A DNA stretch of 32,000 nt. It comes from Polynucleobacter necessarius. Its GTDB lineage: Bacteria; Pseudomonadota; Gammaproteobacteria; Burkholderiales; Burkholderiaceae. Position 1 is the stretch's first letter, and each line of letters begins with the position of its first letter. Below are positions 3,176 to 24,858 of this stretch, piece after piece. Under the pieces are notes generated by a model that ran no database searches, had not been told where the DNA came from, and worked only from the letters and a program-made list of their open reading frames with translations. The position numbers and the translations under genes were made by a program. The stretch lies in contig NZ_LT606950.1 in the NCBI RefSeq assembly GCF_900095195.1, forward strand, positions 1,087,207-1,119,206. The letters run 5' to 3'.

Positions 3176-4177
3176 CTATTGGGCAGCTTCTTTAATATTA
3201 TTTTCAATTACGAACTTACCCCAGATACCAATTTGCTTACCAATAAATTCACGTGCAGACTCAGGCGTACCCCCAACAATTTCAATGCCTTGTGATTTCA
3301 ATTTCTCGGCAATAGCTGGGGTTTTCAGCGCTTTATTCAAAGCCTTATTCATGGAATCGATGATTGGCTGTGGCGTTTTTCCTGGCGCTAACACCGCCCA
3401 CCACGCAGGAGCACTAAATCCAGGGAATCCGCCCTCTGAAATCGTAGGCACATCTGGTAATGAAGGAGATCGTTTTGCAGTCGTGATTACCAACGGAATT
3501 ACACCCTTGTTGTCAATATGTGGCTTTACTAAAAACTCTGACCCGACCGCTAACTCTACCTGACCACCCAGAGCATCTTGCATCAATGGGCCGCCGCCTC
3601 GATAAGGGATGTGGTTCCAGTCAAATCCTGCCTGTTTGGCAAGTCGAGCCATAGCCAAGTGTCCCAGACTACCAATACCAATTGAGCCGTAGCTAAATTT
3701 CTTACCGGCTTTAGATTGCTCTACCAACTGCTTAAAACTGGTAATACCAGAATTCTTGCTAGCTACTAATACCATCGGCGAAGTGCCCACTAAGATCACA
3801 GGCGCAATGTCTTTTATGGTGTCGTAAGGAAGCTTGTCTTTTAGACTTGGATTAACGCCATGCGTATCAAAAACTACGGCGAAGGTGTAACCATCCGGAT
3901 CGGAGCGGGTCATTGCTGAAGTACCAATCACCCCAGACGCACCGCCAATATTCTCAACGATCACGTTTTGCTTTAACTCGTTTTGCAACGCAGGCGTCAA
4001 AATTCGGGCAACCTGATCAACGGATCCACCAGGAGGAAAAACCGCAATAAACCGGATGGGTTTTTGTGTCGGCCATGCACCACCCCCTGCAGATTGAGCA
4101 AAGGATACATTGCTCGCCCCCAAAACACACAACGCAAATATCAGGGCTCTTTTGACCTTTTTTAGTAAATCCAGCAT
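3176..4177 (-). CDS. Bug family (TctC-like) tripartite tricarboxylate transporter substrate-binding protein, intact
   Basis: Uninterrupted 333-aa ORF with a signal peptide (...ASNVSFAQ). Family hallmarks are present: PIRFIAVFPPGGSVD, DPDGYT, SYGSIGIGSLGHLA, IPYRGGGP and PDVPT. Confidence 0.9.
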   Translation of the reverse strand: MLDLLKKVKRALIFALCVLGASNVSFAQSAGGGAWPTQKPIRFIAVFPPGGSVDQVARILTPALQNELKQNVIVENIGGASGVIGTSAMTRSDPDGYTFAVVFDTHGVNPSLKDKLPYDTIKDIAPVILVGTSPMVLVASKNSGITSFKQLVEQSKAGKKFSYGSIGIGSLGHLAMARLAKQAGFDWNHIPYRGGGPLMQDALGGQVELAVGSEFLVKPHIDNKGVIPLVITTAKRSPSLPDVPTISEGGFPGFSAPAWWAVLAPGKTPQPIIDSMNKALNKALKTPAIAEKLKSQGIEIVGGTPESAREFIGKQIGIWGKFVIENNIKEAAQ

Positions 4178-4261
4178 GGATTGTCTCCTTTAGATAAGAC
4201 CTCAAGGTTACCACCGCTAAGGCCGATTTGCTCGATAATACTGAGGGAGCCATAGAAACCA

Positions 4262-5110
4262 ATGAAGTCGATTTTAAATATTGCCGCTTATTTATTTGTG
4301 ACCCTTGATGGGTTACCGGAATTGCGCGCAAAAATGTTGCATGAGTGTCATGAGCGCGATATTAAAATACTATCTTGCTCGCTGGTGAAGGCATCAATAT
4401 GTTTCTTGCTGTGCATTGCGCGGCTTTTTAGACTGACTACGCAGTGACCCCCGCTTTGCCCCCTTAGAAGCAAAAGAGAGTTGGTCTGAGGAGCAGCCTT
4501 TTCATAAGATGCTGATCAAAATTAAAAATGAAATTATTCGCATGAATCACCCGGCGATTCAACCGGAAAAGGGTCGTGCAAATTTTATTTCTCCAAAAAA
4601 ATTACAAGAATGGCTTGATCGTGGCACAGATGATCTTGGGCGACCCGTAATGATGGTGGTACCCGCAATGCATTTGAGGTTGAATACGGGACTTTTGAAA
4701 ATGCACTGCACTTTAATATTGAAAAATTCACCGAGTTTCCAGCCGCCATCTCAGCCCACAAAGAAAAGTTGATCGACAAAACTTTGGTGAGCTTTTGCAC
4801 TGGTGGCATTCGCTGTGAAAAATCAGGGTTATACATGCGAGAAATTGGGATGGAGCACAGTTACCAATTAGAAGGCGGCATCCTCAAGTACTTTGAAGAG
4901 GTCGGGTCAGCCCACTACAGTGGAAGTTGTTTTGTTTTTGATGGGCGCGAGGCTCTAGAGCCCGATTTCAGTATTACGCCAACTGAACGTACCATCCGAC
5001 GAAAAGCAAAAGCGTCTTCATCTCCCAAAAAAACTAATAGTTTTTTAAGTCCAGCAATAATTCATATAACTTCTCAGCAGCGGGTGCGAGACTACGACCT
5101 TTCTTACTAA
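4262..5110 (+). pseudogene. trhO: rhodanese-domain tRNA uridine(34) hydroxylase (UPF0176/YceA family), multiply frameshifted; 3' boundary uncertain
   Basis: ILNIAAYLFVTLDGLPELR...(4262-), PFHKMLIKIKNEII...ISPKKLQEWLD (4509-) and ...[18 protein letters not shown]...[11 protein letters not shown]...CFVFDGR (4769-) lie in different frames. They are joined by [21 protein letters not shown] in yet another frame. Confidence 0.75.
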
Positions 5111-5721
5111 TTAATCCAATTCGCCGCGAAACAACTGGATCTACTAACGTTATGCTTGCAAGGACCGGATGCTCTTTACTAGGCATGGCTAAAGATGGCA
5201 CCACAGCAATTCCCATTCCGGCCTCAACCAAACCCAGAAGCGTAGTGACATGCTGTGCCTCATAAATGATATTGGGCGCCTGTGACTTTCCAGCTAAAGC
5301 AAGGTCAATCAACATTCGATTGCCCGAGGATTTTGAGACCGACATGAAGTCATATTTACTGACCTCCTGCCAAGTGACCTTTTTCTTCTTACTCAGAACA
5401 TGATCTTTACGATGGAACGCACGCGATGGTGATTTCGCCCATCCGCACCCCACCAACCCCCTCAATTCCTAAGAGCGCCTCATCAAGCCCCTCTAAAAGC
5501 ACCTTCGCCTTTTTTGCAAAACCCATTCCAATAGAGGTGAGCTCCATATTTCGGGTATCGCGATCAATGAGCCTTACCCCCAACGCAGACTCGAGCTTTT
5601 CGATTCGACGGCTGAATGCGGGTTGTGAAATATTGACCGATTCTGCAGCTTTCCTGAAGCTCTTAATTTCAGCAACAGCCAAAAAGGCTTGCAGATCATG
5701 CAAATCAAAGTTAATAGCCAT
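5034..5721 (-). pseudogene. LysR family transcriptional regulator with internal deletion and frame change
   Basis: An N-terminal HTH (LHDLQAFLAVAEIKSFRKAAESVNISQPAFSRRIEKLE) is in fragment 5407-5721. The C-terminal effector domain (...YEAQHVTTLLGLVEAGMGIAVVP...) is in fragment 5034-5465. The frames differ and the total is only about 228 codons, against about 300 typical for the family. Confidence 0.8.
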
Positions 5722-5736
5722 AGTATTTATTTGTTA

Positions 5737-5766
5737 ATTGCATTAATACTTAATAATATTGCATTA
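5737..5766. promoter_or_regulatory. candidate operator in the LysR/Bug divergent intergenic region
   Basis: The 9-mer ATTGCATTA occurs at 5737-5745 and 5758-5766, with starts 21 bp apart. It sits between the LysR start (5721, minus) and the Bug start (5833, plus). The first copy lies within TTAATTGCATTAA, a T-N11-A-like element. Confidence 0.3.
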
Positions 5767-5832
5767 TACAAAATGAAATAAAAGCGCAAAAATCGCAGCA
5801 AGTATCAAAATTAAACTTTCTGGAGACAATTC

Positions 5833-6630
5833 ATGAGATCCAAACTCAAAACTGCATTGCTTTGCGTACTTTGTGTGCCAGCATTTTTAGTCACTACAAC
5901 GCTTGCTCAAAACTACCCTAGCAAAACAATTACGATCGTCGTGCCAACGGCACCAGGCGGCGCAAATGACGCTATGGCCAGAATCCTTGCCCAAGGACCA
6001 AGTCAAAAAATGGGGCAGCCTGTCATTGTCGACAATAAGCCCGTCGCCAATGGCGCAATCGCTACTGAGTTTGTAGCAAGAGCAGCCCCTGATGGCTACA
6101 CCATCCTTTTTGGTTACATAGCAACTCATGGAATTAATCCTGCGCTGCAAAAGTTGAAATATGACCCCATCGCAGATTTTGGGCCAATTGGTATTGGTTG
6201 CAAATTCTCCAACGCTGTTAGTGGCTACAAACAGTTTGCCCGTGAACAACGCTAAAGAATTGGTAGCGCTACTAAAAGCAAAACCCGACAGTATCAGCTA
6301 TGCATCCGCAGGAAAAGGCACTGCGCCACATCTAGCAGCAGAACTATTTCAGATAAATACCGGTACACATATGTTGCACGTTTGGTAATACGGTTGATCG
6401 TTTATCGCCTGCAATCCCAAGAGCCTTTAGTTTCCCGCCAGTAACTTGAGGGTAGGCACTGAATAAACTTGGGAACATTACTTAGGTAGTGCCCCCAATG
6501 GTATCGACGATGGCTGGTGCGGATCCCCTATACGGGACGTGCCAACCCTTAAAGAACAAGGCATTCCAAATATGAATGCACACAGTGATATGCATTATTT
6601 GCGCCTGCAAAAACGCCTAAACCTATCGTT
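5833..6630 (+). pseudogene. Bug family (TctC-like) substrate-binding protein: frameshifted, internally inverted, 3'-truncated
   Basis: Signal peptide plus ...ITIVVPTAPGGANDAMAR...APDGYTILFGY (5833-), then a frame change near 6190. ...ISYASAGKGTAPHLAAELF...HMLHV runs to 6381. The next 53 codons are on the opposite strand (6382-6536). It resumes at (V)PTLKEQGIPNMNA, changes frame, and FAPAKTPKPIV ends near 6630. Confidence 0.85.
6382..6536 (-). other. 155-bp in-place inverted segment of the Bug pseudogene
   Basis: The reverse complement reads (V)PYRGSAPAIVDTIGGTT*VMFPSLFSAYPQVTGGKLKALGIAGDKRSTVLP(N). This is the part of the Bug protein expected between ...HMLHV and VPTLKEQ. It is flanked by GCACGT (6376-6381) and ACGTGC (6537-6542). 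Confidence 0.85.
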
Positions 6631-7252
6631 TGGATCGTCCATTGGGGCTGCTCATGACTCCATTCCCACGCGGTTGAGTCAAGGGCAAACATTCGATGTG
6701 TTTGTCTTGGCAGGCTCCGCACTAGATACTTTTATTCAGGCCGGCAAAATCAAAAATGGCACTCGGGTAGACCTAGTTTCATCCCAGATTGCAGCAGCAG
6801 TTCGAGAGGGTGATCCGGTCTCAGATCTCGACTCCCTGGATTCATTTAAAGAATCGTTGCTTACCCATGGAAGAATTGCGTATTCAGCCAGTGCCAGTGG
6901 AACCTATCTTTCTACCGAGCTCTTTCCTAAATTGGGTATTTCTGAAGAGATGTCTGTAAAAGCGCAGAAAATTTTTAGCGAAAGGGTTGGAACCATCCTG
7001 ATGCGCAATGAAGCCGACCCTGGATTCCAGCAAATGAGCGAGCTGTTGCCAATTAAAGGTATCAAGATCATCGAAGATCTTCCCCCGGAGGCCCAGAGAT
7101 CATTTTTCTTTTCAGCAGGCAATGGAAGCGATACAAAGAATGAGGAGCGTGCGCGACATCTCATTGAGATTCTGGCATCCCCTGCGGTTGCAGATAACAT
7201 TCGCCAGACTGGCTTAAAACCAGTCCTCGCAAAAGCGCCCTGGCTAAGCTAA
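6631..7252 (+). pseudogene. ModA-like periplasmic substrate-binding protein (PBP2 fold), 5'-truncated remnant
   Basis: ...FDVFVLAGSALDTFIQAGKI..TRVDLVSSQIAAAVREGDP...IAYSASASGTYLSTELFPKLGI...GFQQMSELLPIKGIKIIEDLPPEAQ...FSAG...LASPAVADNIRQTGLKP. The signal peptide and about the first 50 residues are missing. The fragment is fused directly to the Bug remnant. Confidence 0.6.
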
Positions 7253-7268
7253 ATACGCTTGCCTGCCG

Positions 7269-7292
7269 AATATCTTGTGCGCACAAGATATT
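7269..7292. repeat. perfect 24-bp palindrome in an intergenic region
   Basis: AATATCTTGTGC|GCACAAGATATT lies 17 bp after the ModA-like stop and about 80 bp before the next Bug start. No T-tract follows. Confidence 0.95.
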
Positions 7293-7372
7293 GAATGGAG
7301 CTTAGATCCCAAGCATTAGATTGCAGTTTCAAATATGATTAAGGATCATCAACCATGATTCCTATTTGAAAC

Positions 7373-8348
7373 ATGCCAGCCCAAAAAAACCTTCTCAAGC
7401 ATGGAATTGCTGCGCTACTCTGCCTCATCGCAACCACATTGAGTGCTCAAAGCTATCCCACGCAACTCATTAAAATTGTTGTGGGATTCTCTCCTGGCGA
7501 AGTTCCAGATATCGCAGCAAGAATAATTGGCCAGCATATGAGTGAAAACTGGAAGCAGCCAGTCGTAGTAGAAAATAAACTTGGTGCTGGGAGCAATATC
7601 GCTGCTTAGCTTGTTGCTAACGCACCTTCGGATGGCTACACCCTTCTCTCCATTTCTTCAGATTTTGCAATTTCACCGGCCATTTATCCCTCGTTAGCAT
7701 TTGATCCATTAAAAGACTTTTCAGGAATTACCTTAACAGCTACTGGACCTGCGCTAGTCCTGATATCTCCTAACTTAAAAATCAACAACGTAAAAGAGTT
7801 GGTCGAATATGCCGTCAAAAATCCAGGCAAAGTGACTTACAGTTCAGCGGGTGTTGGAAGCGGCTCTCACTTTGCAGCAGAGCTAATACAAGCCAAGACC
7901 GGTGCCGAGTTATTGCACATTCCCACAAAGAGAATTCCCGATGGAATCACCGAAGCAATGTCTGGAAGAGTTGATTTTTTTATCAGCCCCTATGCCAGCG
8001 CCATCAATTTGGTGAAGTCCGGAAAGGTTCGAGCGATTGCGATCACCAGTACCAAACGGTTTAAAGATTTACCCAACCTACCAACCGTATCAGAATTAGG
8101 TATTCCTGGCTATAAATGAGAATTCTGGTATGGCTTGGTTGCGCCCGCCAAAACACCAAAATCCATCCTTCAAAAAAATTGCTTCTGAGGTCAAGCACAT
8201 TCTTGAACTACCCTCGGTTAAGGAACGTTTTGATGAATTAGGTACAACCGCAGTTTCAAGCACACCCGATCAATTTGACAAATTGATAGCCACCGGAGTC
8301 ATCGAGTTCTCGCGATTAGCAAAATTGTCAGGCATTAAATCTGAGTAA
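7373..8348 (+). pseudogene. Bug family (TctC-like) substrate-binding protein with two in-frame stops and a frameshift
   Basis: The signal peptide and most of the protein (to GIPGYK) are in one frame, interrupted by TAG at 7607-7609 and TGA at 8117-8119. The frame changes in the A7 run at 8172-8178 (...TPKSILQK / KIASEVKHILELP...). Confidence 0.85.
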
Positions 8349-9155
8349 TGATGGGTAGCGTGCATAAAATCGTCACTAGGCACGGCAATCAAATTGCTTT
8401 TACGATTGAAGGGATGGTCCCTGGCTCACGCTATCGCATTCTCTTGCCAGCAATATGGGCATGTGGAAGCCACAACTTCCACTACTGACAAAACAATTTA
8501 AGGTCTTACGGTTTGATACGCGCGGACATGGTCAAAGTTCAGCACCACCAGACCACTACACCTTAAATGATCTCGCCCAGGACGCATATGATCTTTTTCA
8601 GGAGTTGAAAATAGAGCGCACACATTGGTTGGGGCTCTCCATGAGCGGAATGATCGGGCAGACTTTAATTTTGAAACACCCCCATCTATTCGCCTCCCTT
8701 GTTCTAGCGGATACTACCAACAAACGCCCTGAAAATGCTCAGCAAATGTGGGGGGAAAGAATTGCTCAAGCAAAGGCTGGAGGAATGTTATCCATGATTG
8801 ATAGCACTCTTGCACAGTGGTTTAGCGATGATTTTCGCAAAGAGAATCCAACAATCTTCAAGAAATTTCGGAAGGTATTGCTAACACCCCTTTAAATGGC
8901 TTTTGTGGTTGCTGCGAGGCTATTTCACAGATCGATACATTAAATCGCCCCTCTGAAATTGTTTGTCCTACATTAATCTTGGTTGGAGAGTGCGATCATG
9001 GTACTCCGCCACAGATGTCACGAGCAATGAAAGAAAAAATGACCAATGCTCAGTTGCATGAAATCCCGAATGCAGGTCACATTTCTAATATAGAACAACC
9101 AGAGGTATTTCATCGCTATTTATTGAATTTTTATAGACAAAACAACTTTTTATAA
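8348..9155 (+). pseudogene. alpha/beta hydrolase (3-oxoadipate enol-lactonase-like), frameshifted
   Basis: Three frames join to give MMGSVHKIVTRHGNQIAFTIEG / GPWLTLSHSLASNMGMWKPQLPLL...RFDTRGHGQS...WLGLSMSGMIGQ / ...IANTPLNGF...CPTLILVGECDHGTPP...IPNAGHISNIEQPEVF. Frame changes lie near 8410 and 8870. Confidence 0.8.
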
Positions 9156-9209
9156 ACGAGTAAAATCATTCTGCGGTCAAAAATGCAGATTAATAATAGG
9201 AAATGAGAT

Positions 9210-9520
9210 ATGTCTACTTATACTGTTAAATGGTCGCGGAGTTTTTTATGTGGTTTGCTAAAAGTGGTAATTGGTCTCTGTATTTACAACAGCGCCACTG
9301 CCCAAACATCCTGCTCATACCCAGCTAAACCAATTAAATTAATAGCCCCTGTTGCTGCAGGGGGGGTCTGGATAATATAGCCCGGACCTTAGCCGAAAGG
9401 ATGTCGAAGTCACTAGGTCAATCCATTATTGTTGAAAATATTGGCGGTGGCTCAATTGCTTCGCAAGCGGTAGCAAAAGCCGCGCCTGATGGTTACACAT
9501 TACTGGTTGCCTATGTTGGG
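9210..9520 (+). pseudogene. Bug family substrate-binding protein, N-terminal fragment (left part of a gene split by inversion)
   Basis: MSTYTVKW...signal...YPAKPIKLIAPVAAGG, then a frame change in the G7 run at 9360-9366, then LDNIARTLAERMSKSLGQSIIVENIGGG...APDGYTLLVAYVG. Homology stops abruptly near 9520. Confidence 0.75.
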
Positions 9521-10453
9521 TGGACTCGCAGCTCGATACGTTCAACGTCTTCAGCCTTAACACCTTGAGCGCGCAATTGTGCGCAAGCGTCGATAGCAGG
9601 GTGAATGACAATTCCGCAGGCAAATGGCTTGTAGGTGTTTAGTGAAATTTCAAAAGACTGCCCTAGATTTCGATCAATTTCAGACCAGTCGTTTTTGGTA
9701 GACACGGTTTGCATGTAACCACGCCCAGCTTCGAGTGCTTTCGAGCTCGCAGTAAAACCATGTTTTGCCAGCAAGGCTGAGAGTTGACCGGCTCGAGCAG
9801 CGCCACCAGGGTGAAACGGCTTGGTCATGATGCCAAATTGTTCGCGCATACCTACTGGTTGTGATGCAGCAATACCTAACGCCATCAGCGTCTTCCGGGG
9901 GTCTAGCTCATCAAGCGCGAGCAAGCAGCTGCAGACCACAGCATGCCAGTTGAACCGGTAATGTGCCATCCTCGGTGATAGTGATCGGGGTACATCGCAT
10001 TACCAACATGGCAGGCTACATCAATACCTAACACTAAAGAGTCAATCAGTTGACGACCATTTGCATGGATATGCTCGCCTAGTGCCAGAATTGCAGATGC
10101 AACGGGGCCTGCTGGATGAATAACGGTTTTTAAATGGGTATCGTCGAAGTCAAAAGTGTGGGAGCTAATACCATTGATCAGAGCCGCTCCACCCATATCA
10201 ACCTTGTCTTTTCTTCCTAAAATGGTGGCTTGGGTCGCTGGTTGAAATTCCCGAATAGCGGCAAGCGAAGACTCAACACTTTCATGATTGGCTGCGCCAA
10301 TAGCACACCAAGCCAATTGAGAAACGTGCGATGTGCTTCATGCTCTACCTCGGGAGTCCATCCTTGGCTTGGATGAGTGGCGACAAAATCGGCCAACAAT
10401 TTGGTAACCGGTGGGGCATTTAGATCAGCCGCCGCTGCTATTGCATTAGACAT
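9511..10453 (-). pseudogene. MmgE/PrpD family protein, N-terminal ~314 codons (inverted part), frameshifted
   Basis: SD GGAG precedes the ATG at 10453. Fragments 10217-10453, 9903-10316 and 9511-9969 join as ...HRTFLNWLG/CAIGAANHES...SHTFDFDDTHL..IHPAGPV...GWHITGSTGML/...ALGIAASQ..GMREQFG.MTKPFHPG.AAR...ERIELRVHP. Frame changes lie near 10310 and 9940. Confidence 0.85.
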
Positions 10454-10482
10454 TCAAGCTCCGTTCACAGATAAGTTTTTTA

Positions 10483-10776
10483 TTAATGATGTTGTTCTGA
10501 ATTAGTCATTTCAATATTTCTATCTTTAGCAATTTTTGCCCAGCGAGCAATATCCTCCTTAATGTAATTACCGAATTGCTGCGGAGTCATTGGCATTAAT
10601 GTCATTGCTTCGCTGGTCATCTTCTCAGAAAATTCTGGGGTAGCTAGCGCTTTATTCAATTCAACATTTAATTTATTGACGATTGGCTCTGGTAGATTGG
10701 CGGGCCCAACAATGCCATACCATTGCTGACCCTCAAAGCCGTTATAACCAAGCTCTTTAAAAGTAGGAATGTTTGG
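10483..10776 (-). pseudogene. Bug family substrate-binding protein, C-terminal fragment (inverted part)
   Basis: The minus strand reads (L)PNIPTFKELGYNGFEGQQWYGIVGPANLPEPIVNKLNVELNKALATPEFSEKMTSEAMTLMPMTPQQFGNYIKEDIARWAKIAKDRNIEM...* with its stop at 10483-10485. No N-terminal part lies upstream on this strand. Confidence 0.75.
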
Positions 10777-11116
10777 TCAAGCTGGCGAAAGCGAATACAC
10801 AGATGAGATCGTCAATCGTCCCGATGTTGTGGCATTACGAGCCAAGGTGAATGCCACAACAGATACTTCAATCAGCGAAGCCTCGGTCGATGTACGAGTT
10901 TCTCTTAAGAACGGCAAAGAAGTTCATGTATTTGTTAAAAATGCCATTGGCTCCCTAGAGAATCCAATGCGCGATGAAAATCTTGAACATAAGTTCGCAA
11001 GCCTAACTGAGCCAATCATCGGTAAAGAAAAAACACGCCAACTACTTTCCGCCTTATGGAAACTGGGACAAGCAAACGATCTGAAGCAAATTATTGCGTT
11101 GTCTACTCCTGACTAA
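10769..11116 (+). pseudogene. MmgE/PrpD family protein, C-terminal 115 codons (non-inverted part)
   Basis: (M)FGQAGESEYTDEIVNRPDVVALRAKVNATTD...SLENPMRDENLEHKF... looks like the C-terminal domain of the PrpD family. It is on the opposite strand to the N-terminal part. Confidence 0.8.
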
Positions 11117-11135
11117 TATTGAAAGGTTTTCAGTA

Positions 11136-12112
11136 ATGTCCTCTTTACAAAACATTGTTACTCTCGGAGACTATGAACGCGCCTTAAGACGATTTTCCAA
11201 TTGGGATGTGTTGGATAAAAAATCAAATATCACAATTCATCATGAGCCGTTACGCGATGAAGCCCTGTACGAGGCAGCAAAAGATGCAGATGCTATAGCA
11301 ATAATACGAGATCGATCTCCATTCAATGAGGCCATGATTGCTCGTCTTCCAAAACTCAAATTTTTAATGTTTACTGGGGGCGTAATGGCACGCCGGACGC
11401 TGGCGCACTAATAAAGCGAAATATTCCCATTGCATGTACGCCAGGGGGACCTTCAAAAGAAACGACCGCGGAACTGACGCTGACTCTGATATTGGCATCT
11501 GCAAAGCGCTTGGTAGAGCAAAATGCTTTAATGGCAGAAGGTGGATGGCGGGATCAGCTCTCTGTATTGCCAATGCTTTCTGGCGAACGCCTCGGTATTA
11601 TGGGTCTTGGAGCGATTGGTAGTCGCGTCGCACGTGTTGGATTGGCCTTTGGCATGGAAGTTGTTGCTTGGAGCCCACGCATGACGCCCGAACGCGCAGC
11701 TGCTGAAAATGTAAAGGCAGTGAGCCTTGATGAACTCCTGTCAACTTCTAAAATCATCTCAATGCATCTCGTTGCAGGACCAGGAACCAAAGGATTAATT
11801 AGTGCAGATCAAATGTCACGGATGCGTCCCGACTCAATCCTTGTCAATACATCTAGATCCGCTTTAATCAATATGCAAGATTTACAAGCAGCTCTTGCCT
11901 TGGGTTGCCCAAATCAAGCCGCGATTGATGTATTCGATATAGAACCATTGCCAACACAAGATGCTCTTCGGAAAATGCCAAACCTTTTAGCAACACCACA
12001 CCTTGGTTTCATTGCTGAGCCTATATTTAAAATCTTTTCAGAGGGCATTACTAAAACCCTATCTGCATGGTTAGACAATCAGCCAGTCTCCCATCCATTC
12101 AAACCGACATAA
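11136..12112 (+). pseudogene. D-isomer-specific 2-hydroxyacid dehydrogenase, single frameshift
   Basis: MSSLQNIVTLGD...KLKFLMFTGG changes frame to RNGT.DAGALIKRNIPIACTPGGPSKETTAELTLTLILA...GIMGLGAIGSRVA...PHLGF. The shift is in the G5 run at 11376-11380; a G6 run would read TGGRNG in frame. Confidence 0.85.
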
Positions 12113-12119
12113 TCATTTT

Positions 12120-12659
12120 TTGAAAAAACTCACCCCACTTCAACTCTTTATTTGCTTTAGCAAGATAGGTCTCTCTGGATTTGGCGGAGTTCTACCTTGG
12201 GCTCGCAGAGGTTTAGTCGAGAAAGATAAACTACTTACATCCGAGGAATTCAGCGCCATCCTTGGTGTGTGTCAAATAATGCCTGGGCCCAATGTGATTA
12301 ATATCGGGGTTTGTGTTGGGTCGCGCTTTTGTGATGCAAAAGGTGCTATTGCTGCTGTAGCAGGCTTAACCACTGGCCCGATTTTTATTGTTATTTTATT
12401 GGCAATTTTGTATGACCACTACGGATACCTTGACTATATCCAAGGAGCCCTCAAAGGAATTGCTGCAGTAGGTGTTGGCCTGATTGCTAGTACCGGATTC
12501 AAAATGCTTCGAGATGAGTTTCGTTACCCGCCAATGTTTTTTGTAATCGGCATCACGTTAATTGCCGGCATTTATTTTGACTTAGCACTAGGTTTGGTAG
12601 CGCTCTTAGTTGCCCCCTTTGCCTACTATTTTGCTAGAAGAAAAGCGCGCAAGTTATGA
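12120..12659 (+). CDS. chrA: chromate transporter (CHR family, short form), first half-protein; start codon uncertain (TTG)
   Basis: The 179-aa ORF reads ...FSKIGLSGFGGVLPWARRGLVEKDKLLTSEEF...CQIMPGPNVINI. No ATG or clear SD is present. Its stop overlaps the next ATG as ATGA at 12656-12659. Confidence 0.7.
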   Translation: MKKLTPLQLFICFSKIGLSGFGGVLPWARRGLVEKDKLLTSEEFSAILGVCQIMPGPNVINIGVCVGSRFCDAKGAIAAVAGLTTGPIFIVILLAILYDHYGYLDYIQGALKGIAAVGVGLIASTGFKMLRDEFRYPPMFFVIGITLIAGIYFDLALGLVALLVAPFAYYFARRKARKL

Positions 12660-13107
12660 CGCTATTACTTAGCCTATTCATCAAGCTTTCACTATTTTCA
12701 TCGTCGCGTTTGGCGGAATTATTGCAGTTCTGCCATCCCTTCTTGATCTCGCCGTAAATCAAGAACACTGGATTGATTCAGCCACTTTCGCAGATTATTT
12801 TGCTATTGCGCAAGCTGCACCAGGACCCAATTTCATGACAGTCACTCTAGTCGGCTGGCATGTTTATGGGTTAGCAGGAGCCATTCTAGCCTCCATCGCA
12901 ATATGCTGGCCTCCCTCAGTGAGGGTTTTATTTCTTGAGCGCTACATCACGAAAATTCAAGACCACGAGAAGAAAAAAATTATTCAATACGCAGCTGCGG
13001 CTCTAGCTATTGGCTTAGTGCTTACCTCATCCTGGAAGCTTACTGTTGGTTTTAATGATCATTGGACTGCAATTGTATTAACAATTTTTGTCGCAGTCGT
13101 TACGTAA
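12656..13107 (+). pseudogene. chrA: chromate transporter (CHR family) second half-protein, frameshifted near its 5' end
   Basis: ATG at 12656 gives MTLLLSLFIK. The frame then changes near 12686 to FTIFIVAFGGIIAVLPSLLDLAV...AIAQAAPGPNFMTVTLVGW... Confidence 0.7.
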
Positions 13108-13135
13108 TTTTCCAAGATACACCCGCTCTACCTGA

Positions 13136-13152
13136 TAGCGCTCGGAGCGCTA
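13136..13152. terminator. possible hairpin between convergent chrA and tctA remnants
   Basis: TAGCGC-TCGGA-GCGCTA, a 6-bp stem with a 5-nt loop. There is no flanking T-tract, so support is weak. Confidence 0.25.
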
Positions 13153-13172
13153 ATCAGAGGCGCAGGCTTAAT

Positions 13173-14660
13173 CTAAACAGCTGCTTTGCGAGATCTCACT
13201 AGGCGTAAAACATTTGGGATAACCAGCAAAGCAATTGCAATCACCATCAATGTGCCCGATATTGGTCGCGTAAAAAATGTGGACCAATTTCCCTGACTGA
13301 TCGTTAGGGCTTGTCGCATAGACTGCTCTGCCATTGGACCCAAGATTAACCCGATAATCATCGGCGCAGCGGGAAAATCAAAACGTCGCATGCCAAAGAA
13401 ATCCGAAGAAAAATAAAAGTCCAACATCGAATACAGAATTAGGGGATCCGTAAACCCCAGCTACTGAGATCACAACGATGCCAGCATAGAGCCATTGAGG
13501 AGGTATCTTTAATAACTTTACCCAAAGTCCAACTAGCGGCAAATTAAGAACCAACAAAATGATATTGCCGATATATAAACTAGCAATCAAAGTCCAAACC
13601 GCTTTGCTGTGCAAACAGTGTAGGACCAACCTGAATACCATAGGATTCAAAGGCGGATAGGATAATCGCTGCTGTTGCCGATGTGGGAATACCCAAAGCC
13701 AGCAAAGGCATAGGCACTCCTACCGCGGAAGCATTGTTAGCCGCCTCAGGACCTGCGACTCTCTCTATGGCACCCTTACCAAACTCTTCTGGCTTTTTGG
13801 ATAATTTCTTTCCCGTAAAGTACGAGAGCAATGTGGGTAACTCTGCGCCGCCAGCAGGCATTGCACCAATCGGAAAGCCTAATAAACCTCCCCGAATCAT
13901 GCTTTCCAGGGTCTGGAAAAATCTTCTTTAGACAGCCACAGGCTGTCCGATACTGCAAGCATCTCTGATTTCTTATTTTCCTTGCCTTGCAAGCTAGATA
14001 TAAGGCCTCACCAATTGCAAAAAGCCCCACCGCAACAATTGTTACCTCAATACCATCCAAAAATTCAGGTTGGCCAAATGTAAAACGGGGCTGTCCAGTT
14101 TGCAAATCAATGGCGATGAGTCCAAATAATAAACCTTGCTACTAATCTGATGAGACCTCGCAGAGCAGAACTTCCTAAAACGGCAGATACTGTAACCAAA
14201 GCAGAATCATGAGACTGAAATACTCTGCAGGCCCGAAAGCGAGTGCTGCATCAACTACCCAGGGAGCGAAAAACGTCAAAGCGATCGTGCCAATTGTTCC
14301 GGCTACAAAACGTCCAATTGCAGCCGTTGCTAGCGCAGACCCTGCCCTACCGCGACGTGCCATCTTATTTCCTTCAAGCGAAGTCACAATCGTTGCTGAT
14401 TCACCCGGTGTATTTAAAAGAATAGAAGTCGTTGAGCCACCATACATTGCGCCGTAATAAATTCCGGCAAATAAAACAAAATAGCGGTTGCAGGAACCTT
14501 AAATGTTAATGGAAGCAATAATGCAATCGTCAGCGCCGGTCCAATGCCCGGCAATACGCCCACTAAGGTACCAACCAAGCAACCTAAGAACCCATAACAT
14601 TAAGGTCATAGGTTCCAAAGCAACAGCAAACCCCTGCATGAGGGAGTCAAATGAGCTCAT
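13173..14660 (-). pseudogene. tctA: tripartite tricarboxylate transporter large permease TctA, heavily fragmented
   Basis: The start reads [22 protein letters not shown] (ATG at 14660). The continuation [26 protein letters not shown], then ...[16 protein letters not shown]..., and the fragments 13776-14105, 13580-13900, 13378-13650 and 13173-13427 all lie in shifting frames. I count at least six frame changes. Confidence 0.85.
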
Positions 14661-15136
14661 AACTGTCTTTGCTTCAAAACTAAAACTGATTAATCGCCCC
14701 AAATCCACACCAAGGAGCACTGAGAATAAAGTCCAAAAAGCACCTGCGATACCCAGCACCATCAACATAGTTTTGATATTGAGCTTTGCATCAAAAGCCA
14801 TTGATACACCCAAACCACACAATGTCGCGGGCATTAAAAAACCAATTACTTTTGCGAGAAAGATAAAAACAAATCCACCACCAAAAGATATATCACGCGC
14901 ATTGAACCGCCTGGAAGTGGCCGCCCCTCTTCCTCATGTACACAGTCAGGCGCTTTATTCGTAATAGCGCTCAACAAATAAAAAACGCCTAATAAGGAAA
15001 GGAGTGCAACCAAAATTGACGGGGCTAATACTGGCCCTACCTCGGAGTACATCGTAGACTCAGGAATGCTAAGAACTTGCCAAATTGCCACGCCACAAAA
15101 CACCAGTAGAAAACTGGCCACCAGACGTGTACTCAT
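14661..15136 (-). pseudogene. tctB: tripartite tricarboxylate transporter small permease TctB, frameshifted; 3' end unclear
   Basis: MSTRLVASFLLVFCGVAIWQVLSIPES... (14846-15136) continues in another frame as ...FLMPATLCGLGVSMAFDAKLNIKTMLMVLGIAGAFWTLF.... That frame runs without a stop into the tctA start. The ATG overlaps the tctC stop as ATGA at 15133-15136. Confidence 0.6.
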
Positions 15137-16111
15137 GCCAAACCTAACTCTTTGAGGACGGTTTCGGTTTCAGAAATGTACTTCTTAAGCTGCGCATCAA
15201 ATGCAGTTCCCGATGCAAAAGCATCAATCCATTTTCTCTTTTCAAGCGTCTCTGCCCAACCCTTAGTGGCATAAATTTTTGTTGCGAGATCAATCAAGGC
15301 TGTCTTTTGGGCGGCATTAATGCCAGGCGCCCAAAAATACCGCGCCAATTTGCTGCAGTGACATTGACTCCGAGCTCCTTTAGGGTGGGCACATCTACGC
15401 CCGGAATTCTTTTACTACTCGAAACCGCTAGGGCCTTCATTTTCCCCGCCTTGATTTGCTCCGCAAACTCAGAATACCCTGAGATTCCAGAAACCACTTG
15501 TCCGCCTAAAATTGCGGCATTTGCGGGGCCCCCGCCTGCAAAAACAACATATGCCGCATCCAGCGGATTCTTACCAAGCGCTTTAATGATTAAACCCAAA
15601 AGTTGATGATCTATACCGCCTGCGCTGCCACCTGCTACCGAGACTGATTTTGGGTTTGCTTTAATAGCCTCTTCAAATTCTTTCCAAGTTTTGATCTTGC
15701 CGTCAGTAGGAGCCACAATGATTCCGGCCTCCTCAGTCAAACAAGCAATGGGAGTAACATCAGACATAGTTACTGGACTTTTATTGGTGATTGCTGCACC
15801 AACCATTACAAAACCGCCAACCATCAATGCATTAGCTTGCCCTTTACGTTGATTAACAAAACGGGGGAGCCCCACCATTCCACCAGCGCCACCAACATTT
15901 TCAAATTGAAATGACCCGACTAGACCGGCGTCTTTAGCAACTACTTCAATTGCCCTACCCGTGGTGTCCCAGCCACCTCCTGGAGCAGCAGGAATAAACA
16001 TATTAATAGATTCAAACAGCGGTTTATTTTGAGCAAGGGCAAAGGAGGGGATTGTATTTACTAATGTAAATTTGAACCATAAACCAAAAATTCTCTGCGT
16101 GTTGTCTTCAT
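15133..16111 (-). pseudogene. tctC: tripartite tricarboxylate transporter substrate-binding protein TctC, frameshifted
   Basis: ATG at 16111 gives MKTTRREFLVYGS. The frame changes near 16060 to FTLVNTIPSFALAQ...FIPAAPGGGWDTTGRAIE...SVAGGSAGGIDHQLLG.... A second change near 15320 leads to ...YFWAPGINAAQK...ETVLKELGLA*. Confidence 0.85.
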
Positions 16112-16204
16112 TTTTGTCTCCAAATTGACTTAGATTGCGAATCTAAATTCATATTAATTTAGTTTTCTAGAACTATACCTAAATTTAAGCTTAAGTAGCA
16201 TTGA

Positions 16205-16618
16205 TTTAGCGTAACGACTGAAAAGTCCAAATACCGAGGACTCGGAGCGCTTCTACGCGCATTTTTCAATAGCCAGTCTGCCAACGTAGTTTCGATTATT
16301 CCTTTGGGCACGTTACTTTCAAATATGGTGGGCGGGTTATCTCATCGGTATCGCACTGGCTTTTTTTGGGGCAATCCAAATCTCTCACCGGAATGGAAAT
16401 TGTTTGTCATTACAGGATTTTTAGGTGGCTTAACCACGTTTTCAAGTTTTTCCGCAGAAGTCGTCTCATTCGTCCAGCGTGGAGAGTTAGGGTGGGCTAT
16501 TGGAACGGCGCTACTCCATTTGGAGGGATCTGTTGTTCTTACCATGCTCGGCCAAAGAAAATTGCAAGAATGGAACCCCACATTAACTTTGCCTCCTTTA
16601 TTGAATAGTAAAGCCTAG
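16205..16618 (+). pseudogene. crcB: fluoride channel CrcB with missing N-terminus/start and an internal out-of-frame patch
   Basis: ...RGLGALLR...IPLGTLLSNMVGG...PEWKLFVITGFLGGLTTFSSFSAEVV...GWA resembles CrcB. The frame opens only after TGA at 16202-16204, and no start codon precedes the first transmembrane segment. At 16338-16370 the frame reads SHRYRTGFF where the +1 frame reads the expected LIGIALAFF. Confidence 0.7.
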
Positions 16619-17379
16619 CATGCTAATTGAGCCCATCTCAATGCCATCTACGAAAACATTTGCAACCTCGCCCTCTTGTCTTAACGCCATTGCGTATAGA
16701 GCTGGCCAATAGTGCTCAGCAGTTGATATGGATAAATGGGCAGCTTCACCGTAACTACCATAATCAATCAGCGCATCGTATGCATTAGATTAAAGATTGT
16801 TAGCAAAGTAATTATTGGAGTCGACCGCCCACGGGTAAGGTGTGGAATCATCTCGCCAGTCAATAAGACGTAAATTGTGCATCACATTACCACTGGCGAG
16901 AATCAATATATTCTCATCACGCAAGGGCCTTAATTGTTTTGCAAGCTCGAAATGTTCTCTCGCTGTCTTTGGGCTGTCGAGACTTAATTGCACAACAGGC
17001 ACATCCGCATTGGGATAAAGGTATTTCAGAATTGACCATGCGCCATGATCAATACCCCATTCATTCTCCTCAAGAACAACCGGTACACCGAGTAACTCTT
17101 GAATACGATCCGCTAGCGCGGGACTTCCCGGCGCAGGGTATTGAATATCAAACAAAGCTTGAGGGAAGCCACCAAAGTCATGAATTGTTTTGGGGTTCGT
17201 CATCGCAGTAACCCAAGTCCCACGAGTCACCCAATGCGCAGAAATCGCCAAAATAGCATCAGGTCGCTGAAGTGATTCTCCAAGAGGGCTCCACAAGCCG
17301 CAGTAAAACAGTTGGGCTCTATGGCATACATCGGACTGCCATGGCCAGCAAATATTGCAGGTTGGCGATGGCGAGCCAT
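16598..17379 (-). pseudogene. ygiD: 4,5-DOPA dioxygenase extradiol (class III extradiol dioxygenase, YgiD-like), frameshift plus in-frame stop
   Basis: ATG at 17379 gives MARHRQPAIFAGHGSPMYAIEPN. The frame changes near 17300 to ...PDAILAISAHW...IHDFGGFP...YPAPG...GIDHGAWS...LASGNVMHNL.... An in-frame TAA lies at 16790-16792. The same frame then continues SNAYDALIDYGSYGEAAHLSISTAEHYWPALYAM...SISMLGFTIQ* and ends at 16598. Confidence 0.8.
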
Positions 17380-17388
17380 TAAAACAAA

Positions 17389-17526
17389 TTAGCCAAAAAC
17401 GTAACCAGTGTGAGCAGCCACCAATGCAAACAAAATTGCCAAACTTGTTGCAGCACCCAATATGACGATCAAGGTAATGATCTTCTTATTGATTTCCTCT
17501 TTAGATTCGTTATGCCATTCGTTCAT
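17389..17526 (-). CDS. hypothetical 45-aa single-pass membrane peptide (below the ORF-track cutoff)
   Basis: MNEWHNESKEEINKKIITLIVILGAATSLAILFALVAAHTGYVFG*. The SD-like AGAGGA lies 7 nt upstream of the ATG at 17526, and the stop lies 10 bp upstream of the ygiD start. The prediction rests only on the ORF, the SD and the hydrophobic helix. Confidence 0.35.
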   Translation of the reverse strand: MNEWHNESKEEINKKIITLIVILGAATSLAILFALVAAHTGYVFG

Positions 17527-17576
17527 GCTAAATCCTCTTTAAACACGTTCAGATTAATAATGGCCATGATTATCCA

Positions 17577-17744
17577 CTATCGACCGCGGCCAGCCTTACG
17601 CATCATGCCTTTTCCGCCACCAAACCCTGCCTGAGGCCTGCCAGCAGGTCCTGATGGGCCTTTTGGCGCTGGCGGACGGGCTGGTGGTTTTGAGATAACC
17701 GGCTTTGCTGGAGTTTTGGGGTTTGGTTTCTTATTGTCAGTCAC
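17577..17744 (-). CDS. hypothetical 55-aa Pro/Lys/Gly-rich basic protein (below the ORF-track cutoff)
   Basis: GTG at 17744 is preceded by GGAG with a 6-nt spacer. Translation: (M)TDNKKPNPKTPAKPVISKPPARPPAPKGPSGPAGRPQAGFGGGKGMMRKAGRGR*. The composition is low-complexity, so a chance ORF is not excluded. Confidence 0.3.
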   Translation of the reverse strand: MTDNKKPNPKTPAKPVISKPPARPPAPKGPSGPAGRPQAGFGGGKGMMRKAGRGR

Positions 17745-17772
17745 TTTGAGCTCCTATGGATATCATATTGCC

Positions 17773-18435
17773 ATGATTACCGACTATTCTATCCAAGCCG
17801 TCGCCATTAATGCGATTCCCTTGATTTTTGCTATCGCCATCCACGAGGCAGCCCATGGTTATGCAGCCCATAAATTTGGGGATAACACCGCATACATGCT
17901 GGGCCGAGTAAGTCTTAATCCAGCCAAACATATAGATCCCGTTGGCACCATTTTGATTCCTTTGGCGCTTCTCTTGACGGGCTCACCGTTTTTAGTAGGT
18001 TACGCCAAACCAGTCCCTGTCAACTTTGGCCGCTTACGCAATCCTAGAATCGATTCCATTTGGGTTGCTTTAGCTGGTCCTGGCTCCAATTTCTTCCAAG
18101 CGCTGATTTGGGCAATATTCTTAATCCTGCTATTGGGTTTTGGAGTAAATGAGAAGTTCTTTATCTCCATGGCGCAAGCTGGCATTACCTGGAACTTGGG
18201 TTTGCTCGTCTTTAATCTTTTCCCCCTCCCGCCATTAGATGGCGGGCGCATTCTTTCTAGCTTACTGCCAGCACGTCAGTCAATCGCATTAGGGAGATTA
18301 GAACCTTGGGGCTTTTTTATTGTTCTTGCCCTCGTATTTACCGGAATTATTGGCAATCTCTGGATGGAGCCATTAATGGCCTTTTTTAAATGGGTCGTAT
18401 ACCTATTTACGATGCCTCTGCAGAGGCTCTTTTAA
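17773..18435 (+). CDS. site-2 protease family (peptidase M50) membrane metalloprotease
   Basis: MITDYSIQAVAINAIPLIFAIAIHEAAHGYAAHKFGDNTAYMLGRVSLNPAKHIDPVGT...NLFPLPPLDGGR, with the HExxH and LDG motifs. I prefer the first in-frame ATG at 17773 over the track start at 17716. Confidence 0.85.
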   Translation: MITDYSIQAVAINAIPLIFAIAIHEAAHGYAAHKFGDNTAYMLGRVSLNPAKHIDPVGTILIPLALLLTGSPFLVGYAKPVPVNFGRLRNPRIDSIWVALAGPGSNFFQALIWAIFLILLLGFGVNEKFFISMAQAGITWNLGLLVFNLFPLPPLDGGRILSSLLPARQSIALGRLEPWGFFIVLALVFTGIIGNLWMEPLMAFFKWVVYLFTMPLQRLF

Positions 18436-18476
18436 TTCGATTGTCATGCCAAATTCTTCGTTCTGGAGTATCCTGA

Positions 18477-18492
18477 TTTCACTTTAGTGAAA
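18477..18492. promoter_or_regulatory. inverted repeat upstream of the cytochrome c' gene (possible operator)
   Basis: TTTCAC-TTTA-GTGAAA lies about 45 bp upstream of the ATG at 18535, followed by a TATAAA box near 18502. It is short, and no known consensus was recognised. Confidence 0.2.
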
Positions 18493-18534
18493 ACCATGCT
18501 GTATAAATTAATCAATATGAATAACGAGGTTTAT

Positions 18535-18987
18535 ATGAAGTTCCAAAAAATGATTCTTGCTACTACCGTTAGCGCTCTCACCATTGGGTCTGGTGTCGCG
18601 TTTGCGCAATTTCAAAAAGCTGAAGACGCAATTAAATACCGTCAAAGTGTTTTTACCGTGATGGCAAACTCTTTTGGAAAAATCGGAGCTGTGGTGAAGG
18701 GTGAAGCCCCGTACATCAAAGATGAGGTCGCAAAAAATGCTGCTGTTGTAGCAACCCTTTCAACATTACCTTGGCAGGCTTTTGGCCCGGGAACCGAGGG
18801 TGGCAAAGCACAGTCTGATGTTTGGTCCGATTCCGCAAAGTTCAAAGCAGCATCCGAAAAGATGCAACTAGCGGTAGCTAACTTGAACAAAGCCGCTCAA
18901 TCTGGCGATCTCGGTAGCATCAAGAAATCTTTTGGAGCCGCTAGCCAGCCTTGCAAAGGCTGTCACGACGATTTCAAGAAAAAATAA
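18535..18987 (+). CDS. cytochrome c' (class II c-type cytochrome)
   Basis: SD GAGG lies 7 nt upstream of the ATG. The signal peptide is MKFQKMILATTVSALTIGSGVAFA. The body has a four-helix-bundle look (IKYRQSVFTVMANSFGKI...), with a C-terminal CKGCH heme-binding motif. Confidence 0.85.
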   Translation: MKFQKMILATTVSALTIGSGVAFAQFQKAEDAIKYRQSVFTVMANSFGKIGAVVKGEAPYIKDEVAKNAAVVATLSTLPWQAFGPGTEGGKAQSDVWSDSAKFKAASEKMQLAVANLNKAAQSGDLGSIKKSFGAASQPCKGCHDDFKKK

Positions 18988-19654
18988 GATAACCAACCAC
19001 TACAGCAATAACGCTTAAGAGAATTAGCGCGAAAGCGCGTTGTAAAACCCCATCTTTGGATGGCTGACCCAAGTCAGAAGGCGAATAGTCAGCCTCCTCG
19101 TTTGGGTCAATTTCTTTATCGCCCAACAACATCGGCTTGATTAAGTTTTCACCCTTATATTTCTTATAAAACCAAATGGCAGCGATATGAATGGTAACTA
19201 AGGTATAGATCAACACCTGATTACCTTCATGTATCTCCGACAAGAATGAAACTACTGCGTTAGGAACATATTTTGCTAATGGTCCCTGAAAAGCAATTTC
19301 ATTGTCAACAAAAAGACCTGTTATCACCTGAACACTTAAAACAAATAACAAGGCAAAAACTGAAAGAGCGCCAATCGGGTTATGTCCCAAGTAGCGCGGC
19401 GACCTTCCCTGGAGATAACCTAAAATAGCCGACCGAGTCGGAAAGAATGCGGCAAAGCGCGCATGTTTTGAGCCAACAAATCCCCAAAGAATTCTGAAGA
19501 TCAATAAGGTCAATATCGAATAACCAAAATAGGCATGCCACTCAATCGCATTACCGCCGATATTGACGCTAATGAAGCTCCCTGTAATACAGAGAACTAA
19601 TAGCCAATGAAATAAACGAATCGGCAAATCCCAAACACGAATAATTTTCTTCAT
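18974..19654 (-). CDS. cytochrome b561 family membrane protein
   Basis: The 226-aa ORF reads MKKIIRVWDLPIRLFHWLLVL...WHAYFGYSILTLLIFRILWGF.G....F, with conserved His-containing transmembrane helices. Confidence 0.85.
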   Translation of the reverse strand: MKKIIRVWDLPIRLFHWLLVLCITGSFISVNIGGNAIEWHAYFGYSILTLLIFRILWGFVGSKHARFAAFFPTRSAILGYLQGRSPRYLGHNPIGALSVFALLFVLSVQVITGLFVDNEIAFQGPLAKYVPNAVVSFLSEIHEGNQVLIYTLVTIHIAAIWFYKKYKGENLIKPMLLGDKEIDPNEEADYSPSDLGQPSKDGVLQRAFALILLSVIAVVVGYLIFS

Positions 19655-19696
19655 ACTTTAAGGATAAAGCACATTACCCCTTAAACTCACTGAAAT

Positions 19697-21828: not shown

Positions 21829-21909
21829 GATTTTTCTCCTAAAAGGTAGGACTTTTTTCAAAATCCCCATATAATGGGGCCATTATTCCAATAAAAATCT
21901 GAGACAAAC

Positions 21910-24791: not shown

Positions 24792-24814
24792 AGGGGTGAG
24801 TTAATCTCACCCCT
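24792..24814 (+). promoter_or_regulatory. intercistronic stem-loop between the TAXI binding-protein gene and the permease gene
   Basis: AGGGGTGAG-TTAAT-CTCACCCCT, a 9-bp GC-rich stem, lies 17 bp after the stop at 24775. There is no strong T-tract. Its position suits partial termination or mRNA stabilisation. Confidence 0.5.
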
Positions 24815-24858
24815 TCTGCATTAAGAAACGCATAAATATAAAAAAGATAGGTTGAGAC

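Follow-up and report, generated by a model that had tools for sequence, protein, structure and literature searches.

A lineage-specific in-place inversion across two decaying genes of the endosymbiont Polynucleobacter necessarius, with two smaller inversions nearby

Background

In the Hin, Gin, FimB/E and shufflon systems, a segment of DNA is inverted in place. Small hairpin-associated inversions are known from chloroplasts, where the stems usually measure 8-50 bp, the loops are shorter than 200 bp and the DNA is non-coding, and rearrangements of the deletion-inversion-deletion type, found in human genomic disorders and cancer, belong to fork stalling and template switching (FoSTeS) and microhomology-mediated break-induced replication (MMBIR). 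Finally, template switching between short inverted repeats produces the quasipalindrome or 'spacer inversion' mutations (Ripley 1982), among them those at the hotspots in Escherichia coli thyA and rpsL (reviewed in PMC5941160), and cases have been described in yeast (PMC8604942). Here we consider a reversed block that resembles each of these in part. In a 32,000-nucleotide stretch of the Polynucleobacter necessarius chromosome, hereafter the window (RefSeq assembly GCF_900095195.1, contig NZ_LT606950.1, positions 1,087,207 to 1,119,206), two adjacent genes, one for a Bug protein (a TctC-family periplasmic receptor) and one for an MmgE/PrpD-family protein (below, PrpD), lie in four oppositely oriented pieces around and within an inverted block at positions 9517-10777, and both genes have lost sequence at its ends.

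Pseudogene decay in the P. necessarius symbionts of Euplotes has reportedly been described by Boscaro and colleagues, in 2013 and again in 2017. The window belongs to the same group of organisms, with genomes of 1.55-1.9 Mb in which frameshifts and deletions have struck the same metabolic and transport genes independently; its source is a symbiont chromosome of 1,550,368 bp. P. necessarius symbionts are obligate endosymbionts of Euplotes, and their genomes, of about 1.6 Mb, contain a 'large number of pseudogenes' (PMC5018217). In the searchable literature, we came across no report of small inversions in place as a mode of this decay; the descriptions there stress frameshifts, stops and deletions.

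A derived inversion of an ancestral gene pair

The window was compared with orthologous loci and contigs of Polynucleobacter relatives, designated here by L-numbers (L168 is a syntenic 104-kb metagenome contig), by means of a six-frame list of open reading frames (ORFs), a Pfam domain search, blastn of the window against the relatives and alignments of the junctions. When the PrpD fragment was scanned against species-representative genomes, the matches came almost exclusively from Polynucleobacter. In all 32 of the 32 closest relatives, Bug and PrpD are covered by one colinear high-scoring segment pair (HSP). An intact 334-aa Bug and an intact 457-aa PrpD are encoded in the syntenic contigs L163, L168 and L170, and in L001, where both genes are likewise intact (PrpD again of 457 aa), a 2-hydroxyacid dehydrogenase and ChrA come next. 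Against L168, window positions 9327-9518 match 6662-6860 and positions 10769-16111 match 8629-14008, both on the plus strand, whereas 9517-10777 match 8541..7270 in reverse, with 75% identity over 1272 bp. Against L001, the direct matches are 9318-9519 to 8906-9114 and 10771-13023 to 10882-13156, and the reversed one is 9517-10777 to 10792..9523, with 77% identity. Each of the five relatives run against the window gave the same picture, and in every relative tested the reversed HSP measures 1260-1272 bp, with 73-79% identity. Against L168, adjoining HSPs overlap by 2 bp at the left junction and by 9 bp at the right one; across the relatives, the left overlap is 2-3 bp. In the window, the pair has also lost 407 bp (136 codons) from the middle of Bug and 87 bp (29 codons) of PrpD; the figures, in which the ambiguous junction bases are counted with the retained pieces, are the same in six of six relatives.

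Since the pair is colinear in all 32 relatives and the surroundings are syntenic with L168, the comparison decisively supports the reading of 9517-10777, now on the minus strand (ancestral L001 9523-10792 and L168 7270-8541), as a derived, lineage-specific in-place inversion of an ancestral plus-strand Bug-PrpD pair. The same data refute the alternative of four independent genes that have always had their present orientation; the fragments complement each other, without overlap, as parts of single orthologues, and the four-piece pattern is far beyond chance. Apart from three reversed blocks, window positions 3565-22605 are colinear with L168 1-20532, the gene order of which matches the window throughout: LysR, Bug, SBP, Bug, hydrolase, ABM (antibiotic-biosynthesis-monooxygenase-like), Bug, PrpD, 2-hydroxyacid dehydrogenase, ChrA, ChrA, TctA/B/C, CrcB and LigB. 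A first-pass annotation, made by a model from the letters of the window and its ORF list alone, had proposed that an inversion of about 1.25 kb split a colinear plus-strand pair, and this is borne out by the 32 relatives and by the intact genes of L163, L168 and L170; in the alignment to the orthologous locus, which that annotation had suggested as a check, the flanks run directly and only the internal block is reversed. Its estimate of about 30 lost PrpD codons agrees with the 29 found, whereas about 125 codons for Bug was too few, the actual loss being 136 (407-408 bp).

The remnant of the Bug N-terminus lies on the plus strand at 9210-9520 and extends from the signal peptide to ...LLVAYVG (Pfam TctC 9-48 at 9401-9520). 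It consists of two ORFs, 9210-9380 and 9401-9568, with a 1-bp deletion (L001 8950) and an in-frame stop near 9380. The N-terminal part of PrpD, about 314 codons ending in ...RIELRVHP, occupies 10453-9511 on the minus strand (Pfam MmgE_PrpD_N 3-244 and MmgE_PrpD_C 1-37); 1-bp deletions at L001 10000 and 10402 leave it in three ORFs (10453-10217, 10316-9903 and 9969-9511), and GGAG sits 5 nt upstream of its ATG at 10453. Between this gene start and the end of Bug, the ancestral intergenic spacer of 29 bp has been carried along within the inverted block (10454-10482, minus strand); the homologous spacer is found in L001 9800-9853. The remnant of the Bug C-terminus, at 10776-10483 on the minus strand (Pfam TctC 187-273), reads PNIPTFKELGY...ARWAKIAKDRNIE... 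and has a 1-bp deletion shortly before the original stop (L001 9793); in the minus-strand translation, a stop is followed directly by PNIPTFKELGY. Finally, the C-terminal 115 codons of PrpD, at 10769-11116 on the plus strand (Pfam MmgE_PrpD_C 69-172), form an unbroken frame that starts with MFGQAGESEY... and is identical to WP_231968558.1, which is encoded by this chromosome and listed in RefSeq as a stand-alone 115-aa 'MmgE/PrpD family protein'. The latter is a mere gene tail, and its stand-alone annotation is an artefact of the inversion. The ORF list, the Pfam matches and the translations agree with the first-pass annotation in the coordinates and strands of all four pieces, and the 29-bp spacer with a GGAG Shine-Dalgarno sequence that it reported is present. 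Its N-terminal PrpD piece, correct in position and in having its own GGAG, is not a single reading frame but three ORFs, and the leucine that it placed ahead of PNIPTF is missing: only the stop codon precedes, and the frame opens at PNIPTF.

Microhomology at the junctions

The left junction (9517-9520) joins ...TATGTTGG to GTGGAC..., and its bases TGGG can belong to Bug, where L003 and L010 have ...GTT GGG, or, reverse-complemented, to PrpD (...CAC CCA). At this point, the relatives have TATGT(N)GG(N)AC in Bug, with GTTGGG in L003 and L010, and GT(N)CA(Y)CC(N) in PrpD, the reverse complement of which is (N)GG(R)TG(N)AC; all of them have CACCC(A). The two genes have 2-4 bp (TGGG) in common here.

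At the right junction, ATGTTTGG occupies 10769-10776 in the context ...GGAATGTTTGGTCAAGC..., and the stretch ATGTTTGG(T) at 10769-10777 gives Met-Phe-Gly if read as PrpD and, on the opposite strand, Pro-Asn-Ile if read as Bug. The first-pass annotation had noted this octamer and its double reading, both of which are as it described them, and had gone on to conclude that the two ancestral genes carried it as an 8-bp inverted repeat; among the relatives, the octamer is found in part of the PrpD genes and in none of the Bug genes. Specifically, PrpD at the right breakpoint has (G)ATGTTTGGTCAAGC / GATGTTTGGTCAAGC in five relatives (L003, L004, L009, L010 and L012), that is, ATGTTTGG is found in 5 of 31, the others having ATC, ATT or AAG (Ile or Lys). 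Because these five have GATGTTTGGTCAAGC, Met-Phe-Gly is a real ancestral state of PrpD in part of the genus. The Bug counterpart, CCAAACAT, occurs in none of about 33 relatives, in most of which the conserved Pro-Asn-Ile/Val is encoded as CCNAAYAT. The conserved codons fix only AT.TT.GG, six of the eight bases, and a perfect inverted match of 8-9 bp needs two particular synonymous choices in the ancestor. It is plausible but unproven that both ancestral genes carried the octamer. As the junction keeps a single copy, the microhomology on the right (ATGTTTGGT) can only be bracketed, to judge from the aligned sequences, between 2 bp (AT) and 9 bp. There is no second copy of the repeat at the left junction, which reads GTTGGGTGGAC and contains neither ATGTTTGG nor CCAAACAT; in the model of the first-pass annotation, the octamer is missing there because of a later deletion.

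Two neighbouring inversions

The listing of all reversed HSPs contains two further in-place inversions, 3 kb and 5.5 kb away, so that there are three within 10 kb. The smaller one, of 155 bp, reverses positions 6382-6536 (minus strand) within another Bug (TctC) pseudogene, between flanks GCACGT (6376-6381) and ACGTGC (6537-6542), and is seen as reversed HSPs against L007, L011, L015, L023, L168 and L169. Its left junction joins TTGCACGT to TTGGTAATACGG, and its right junction joins CGGGACGTGC to CAACCC. The total length is the same as in the intact orthologues (55 codons), so that the exchange, at the 6-bp inverted repeat with its palindromic ACGT core, was perfectly reciprocal. The inverted block also holds a CAA-to-TAA stop.

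The other inversion has turned about 313 bp of the fluoride-channel gene crcB/fluC to the plus strand (16239-16551), with CCGAG (16234-16238) and CTCGG (16547-16551) at its ends, while the neighbouring TctC and LigB genes are still on the minus strand, as in all relatives. The reversed HSPs appear against at least 16 genome relatives and against the independent metagenome contigs L106, L162, L168 and L169. The Leu-Gly codons CTCGG stand at both ends in inverted orientation, forming a 5-bp inverted duplication, and a few bp are gone at the N-terminal side; therefore, the junctions of this inversion are not reciprocal. The gene has internal frameshifts as well.

In the 190 pairwise comparisons of 20 relatives over this region (mean 14.5 kb aligned, the other symbiont included), there was not a single in-place reversal, the five reversed HSPs encountered being matches between distant paralogues. 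No further inversions were found when the right half of the window (17-32 kb) was compared with 26 metagenome contigs, and a sensitive on-diagonal scan of the minus strand for smaller inversions yielded none, only conserved palindromic hairpins. At 19065-19110 and 24792-24818, the orthologous positions of several relatives match the palindromes in reverse complement; these are probably conserved terminator-like hairpins.

Gene decay around the inversions

All four pieces of Bug and PrpD read as pseudogene remnants when compared with the intact orthologues, given the 1-bp deletions located above; this status escaped the first-pass annotation, as did the place of the inversion in a set of three local ones. 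In L015 (P. necessarius PPGSP2, 1.89 Mb; 8793-11228) and in L081 (2916-5351), Bug and PrpD are colinear, and both genes are inactivated by frameshifts of their own, +1 at L001 9030, +2 at 9085 and +1 at 10863. These lesions differ from those in the window, which suggests that the same operon decays independently in different symbionts, selection on it being relaxed. Because the genes are no longer maintained in the symbiont, the inversion is almost certainly selectively neutral.

The window has a G+C content of 42-48%, and many of its genes are in pieces. Fragmented genes occupy 7373-9155, 11094-12112 and 12835-17379; among them are a Bug gene in three pieces, an alpha/beta hydrolase and a 2-hydroxyacid dehydrogenase in two each, a shortened second ChrA, and TctA, TctC and LigB in pieces. 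From about 17.7 kb on, the genes look largely intact, as exemplified by a 670-aa transporter at 24859-26871. Relative to L168, the 19 kb syntenic with it have independently lost 206 bp, about 307 bp and about 363 bp. The 206-bp deletion lies at about 5410-5412, in the interval from the LysR regulator to the first Bug gene, with an overlap of 3 bp between the flanking alignments. The deletion of about 307 bp, at 6543-6626, some 80 bp to the right of the 155-bp inversion, has removed the C-terminal ~100 codons of the Bug gene that holds this inversion, together with the start of the next gene, leaving a fused ORF (6539-7252) in which PTLKEQGIPNMN... is joined to an SBP_bac_11 protein. At 9134-9326, a 100-aa ABM gene, which stands between the hydrolase and Bug in L168, L163, L015 and L081, has been deleted, with 193 bp left versus about 556 bp in the relatives. 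The block LysR-Bug-SBP-Bug-hydrolase (window 4966-9318 versus L001 8651-8906) is missing from L001, L002, L018 and others and is present in L015, L023 and L168; it is an island of variable gene content among Polynucleobacter species.

Comparison with known systems

With template switching between short inverted repeats, the locus shares the two strand switches, the reverse-complementing of a segment in place and the independence from a recombinase, and the 155-bp inversion, clean and with 6-bp arms, fits this class exactly. The difference is one of scale, the spacers of the documented switches being of a few to tens of bases, whereas the blocks here measure 155, 313 and 1,260 bp, and of precision, in that the return switch in the Bug-PrpD event would have missed the reciprocal site, at the cost of 407 and 87 bp. 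The rearrangements of the FoSTeS/MMBIR type are similar in that an inverted middle segment lies between losses on either side, with four breakpoints in all and 2-9 bp of microhomology per join; in contrast to them, the present case concerns a bacterial symbiont, a kilobase scale and a fixed neutral pseudogene scar, and replication is here our reading of the junctions. Like the small inversions of chloroplasts, those of the window are recurrent, in place, associated with short inverted repeats, located in a reduced, recombinase-poor genome and seen only by comparison; however, their arms are of 5-9 bp and lie inside former coding sequence. The invertible segments of the Hin, Gin, FimB/E and shufflon type have in common with the locus that they are inverted in place; here, by contrast, there is no recombinase, no conserved inverted-repeat site and no logic of promoters or alternative genes, sequence has been lost, and the cargo is non-functional.

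Origin of the inversion

That the inversion is real and was mediated by microhomology appears very probable. As for its course, three histories yield the present sequence and fit it equally well, namely, a reciprocal inversion followed by a deletion at the left junction, the mirror image of this route, and a deletion-inversion-deletion in one step. We give a tentative preference to the last of these, a microhomology-mediated double template switch, at slightly less than an even chance; an inversion followed by a later deletion, in whichever of its two forms, is possible, and we place it somewhat lower. The full account, a neutral inversion produced by a one-step double template switch, is put forward just as tentatively.

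The ancestor had the plus-strand order Bug(TctC)-PrpD-2-hydroxyacid dehydrogenase-ChrA, and the block from Bug Pro-Asn-Ile to PrpD ...Arg-Val-His-Pro was rejoined in reverse, at a TGGG-like sequence (2-4 bp) on the left and a ATGTTTGG-like sequence (2-9 bp) on the right. We infer a replicative mechanism and its timing as a single event: replication would have gone wrong once, with two switches of template, such that the nascent plus strand departed from Bug at ...TATGTTGG, annealed to the opposite template at PrpD ...CACCCA, about 1.7 kb further on, copied 1.26 kb backwards and then returned to its own template at PrpD ATGTTTGG, a path that would skip 407 bp in Bug and 87 bp in PrpD within the same event. 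Such a course has the merits of being a single event and of having microhomology at both of its junctions. Copying also fits better than crossover with the junctions of the crcB inversion, which are not reciprocal, and template switching with two switches between short inverted repeats has been documented in bacteria (PMC5941160). Several observations weigh against this course. The two neighbouring inversions have clean or almost clean joins, and the process does not usually drop hundreds of bases in this lineage; independent deletions of 200-360 bp are common in the region, which makes a later deletion over one junction quite plausible. Furthermore, documented template switches between short inverted repeats mostly span tens of bases, not 1.3-1.7 kb. 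There is no intermediate genome, and the databases searched contain no sister strain with at least 90% identity; for both the PrpD tail and ChrA, the best match that remains is at most 88% identical.

The first-pass annotation had envisaged a reciprocal inversion between CCAAACAT in Bug and ATGTTTGG in PrpD, followed by one later deletion at the left junction of about 0.45-0.5 kb. The size agrees with the combined loss of about 494 bp; the mirror and the one-step routes fit equally. There is a good deal to be said for this order of events, which we consider unlikely without dismissing it: the inversion would bring the middle of Bug next to the 29 PrpD codons at the left junction, the right junction can hold up to 8-9 bp common to both genes, ATGTTTGG is present in PrpD of five relatives, a clean exchange of exactly this kind, at a 6-bp inverted repeat, is seen in the 155-bp inversion, the region has many deletions of 200-360 bp, and 2-4 bp of microhomology, as found on the left, are typical of deletion scars. 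The price is two events, the second of which must strike a junction (with about 7% of the ancestral sequence deleted, we estimate about 13% for either junction), and the route further suffers from the lack of CCAAACAT in Bug of any relative and of an observed intermediate. If, in the mirror image of this history, the inversion took place at the left, between Bug ...GTTGGG and PrpD ...CACCCA (a 4-bp inverted match), and was followed by slippage between 8-bp ATGTTTGG direct repeats at the right, where the two segments now missing would have come to adjoin, the same two-event cost and the same unproven 8-bp identity would be incurred, and the inversion itself would have to proceed at just 2-4 bp of homology. 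Its sequence requirements at the left are found among the relatives, with GTTGGG in Bug of L003 and L010 and CACCC(A) in PrpD of all, and the inversion would turn the ATGTTTGG-like sequences into direct repeats about 0.5 kb apart, a classic substrate of RecA-independent deletion. We nevertheless deem this mirror route improbable.

An artefact, in which all three inversions would stem from whole-genome amplification (phi29 chimeras) or from assembly, deserves attention because chimeras of phi29 multiple displacement amplification (MDA) typically are inverted joins with an intervening deletion and a short microhomology; DNA of ciliate symbionts is often amplified, and three events in 10 kb are set against none in 20 other genomes. 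However, each event has two matching junctions around a colinear block where a chimera would give one, random chimeras do not reach the consensus, and junction repeats of 6-9 bp are far below the k-mer sizes of assemblers; moreover, the record is a finished 1.55-Mb chromosome, and all three events are in pseudogenes, as would be expected of tolerated real mutations. We therefore regard an artefact as very unlikely. Still less can be said for an inversion that is programmed or driven by a recombinase (Hin/Fim-type switch, shufflon) or for homologous recombination between long inverted repeats or copies of an insertion sequence (IS), for which only the bare fact of an in-place inversion speaks and to which we attach next to no probability. 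There is no recombinase or IS in the 32 kb; the window is colinear with free-living relatives, with three unaligned stretches of at most 206 bp each, and its gene content is that of L168, a contig that lacks a recombinase. The repeat search returned only short, imperfect pairs, none of them at the junctions; no junction has an inverted repeat of 14 nt or longer. Each of the three inversions ends in short inverted sequences of its own, unrelated to those of the others, which argues against a sequence-specific recombinase; in addition, sequence has been lost, and the genes are frameshifted. On these grounds, both the site-specific switch and the recombination between long repeats or IS copies were rejected, and the double template switch at microhomologies is the reading that we retain, tentatively, for the Bug-PrpD event.

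Implications

The Bug-PrpD event belongs to a class already known, microhomology-mediated inversion or template switching, and its setting, the pseudogene decay of P. necessarius, is known as well; it is not a new system. Taken alone, it is a neutral scar that shows how two adjacent genes of a decaying operon can be scrambled. Small inversions, if they are this dense genome-wide, would also be a practical warning for the annotation of pseudogenes, as fragments on opposite strands get called separate genes. That small in-place inversions lie so densely here in one lineage is mildly unexpected, and we found no description of it in the searchable literature: three of them, together with several deletions of 200-500 bp, lie within 19 kb of one young endosymbiont genome, in a region that is colinear in 20 relatives.

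It is conceivable, although we consider it rather doubtful, that this lineage has an elevated rate of small (0.1-1.5 kb), microhomology-flanked in-place inversions, the signature of a 'template-switch mutator', possibly because a 3' exonuclease, a fork-processing helicase or some other suppressor of strand switching has been lost. The basis for this suggestion is the contrast between three events in 10 kb and none in 20 relatives over the same region, the other symbiont included. If it is true, dozens to hundreds of flips would be expected across the pseudogenes of the whole genome, and early genome reduction would include inversion as an unrecognised way for genes to die. If the density seen here holds genome-wide, small inversions would constitute a measurable, under-reported part of the mutational spectrum of early genome reduction.

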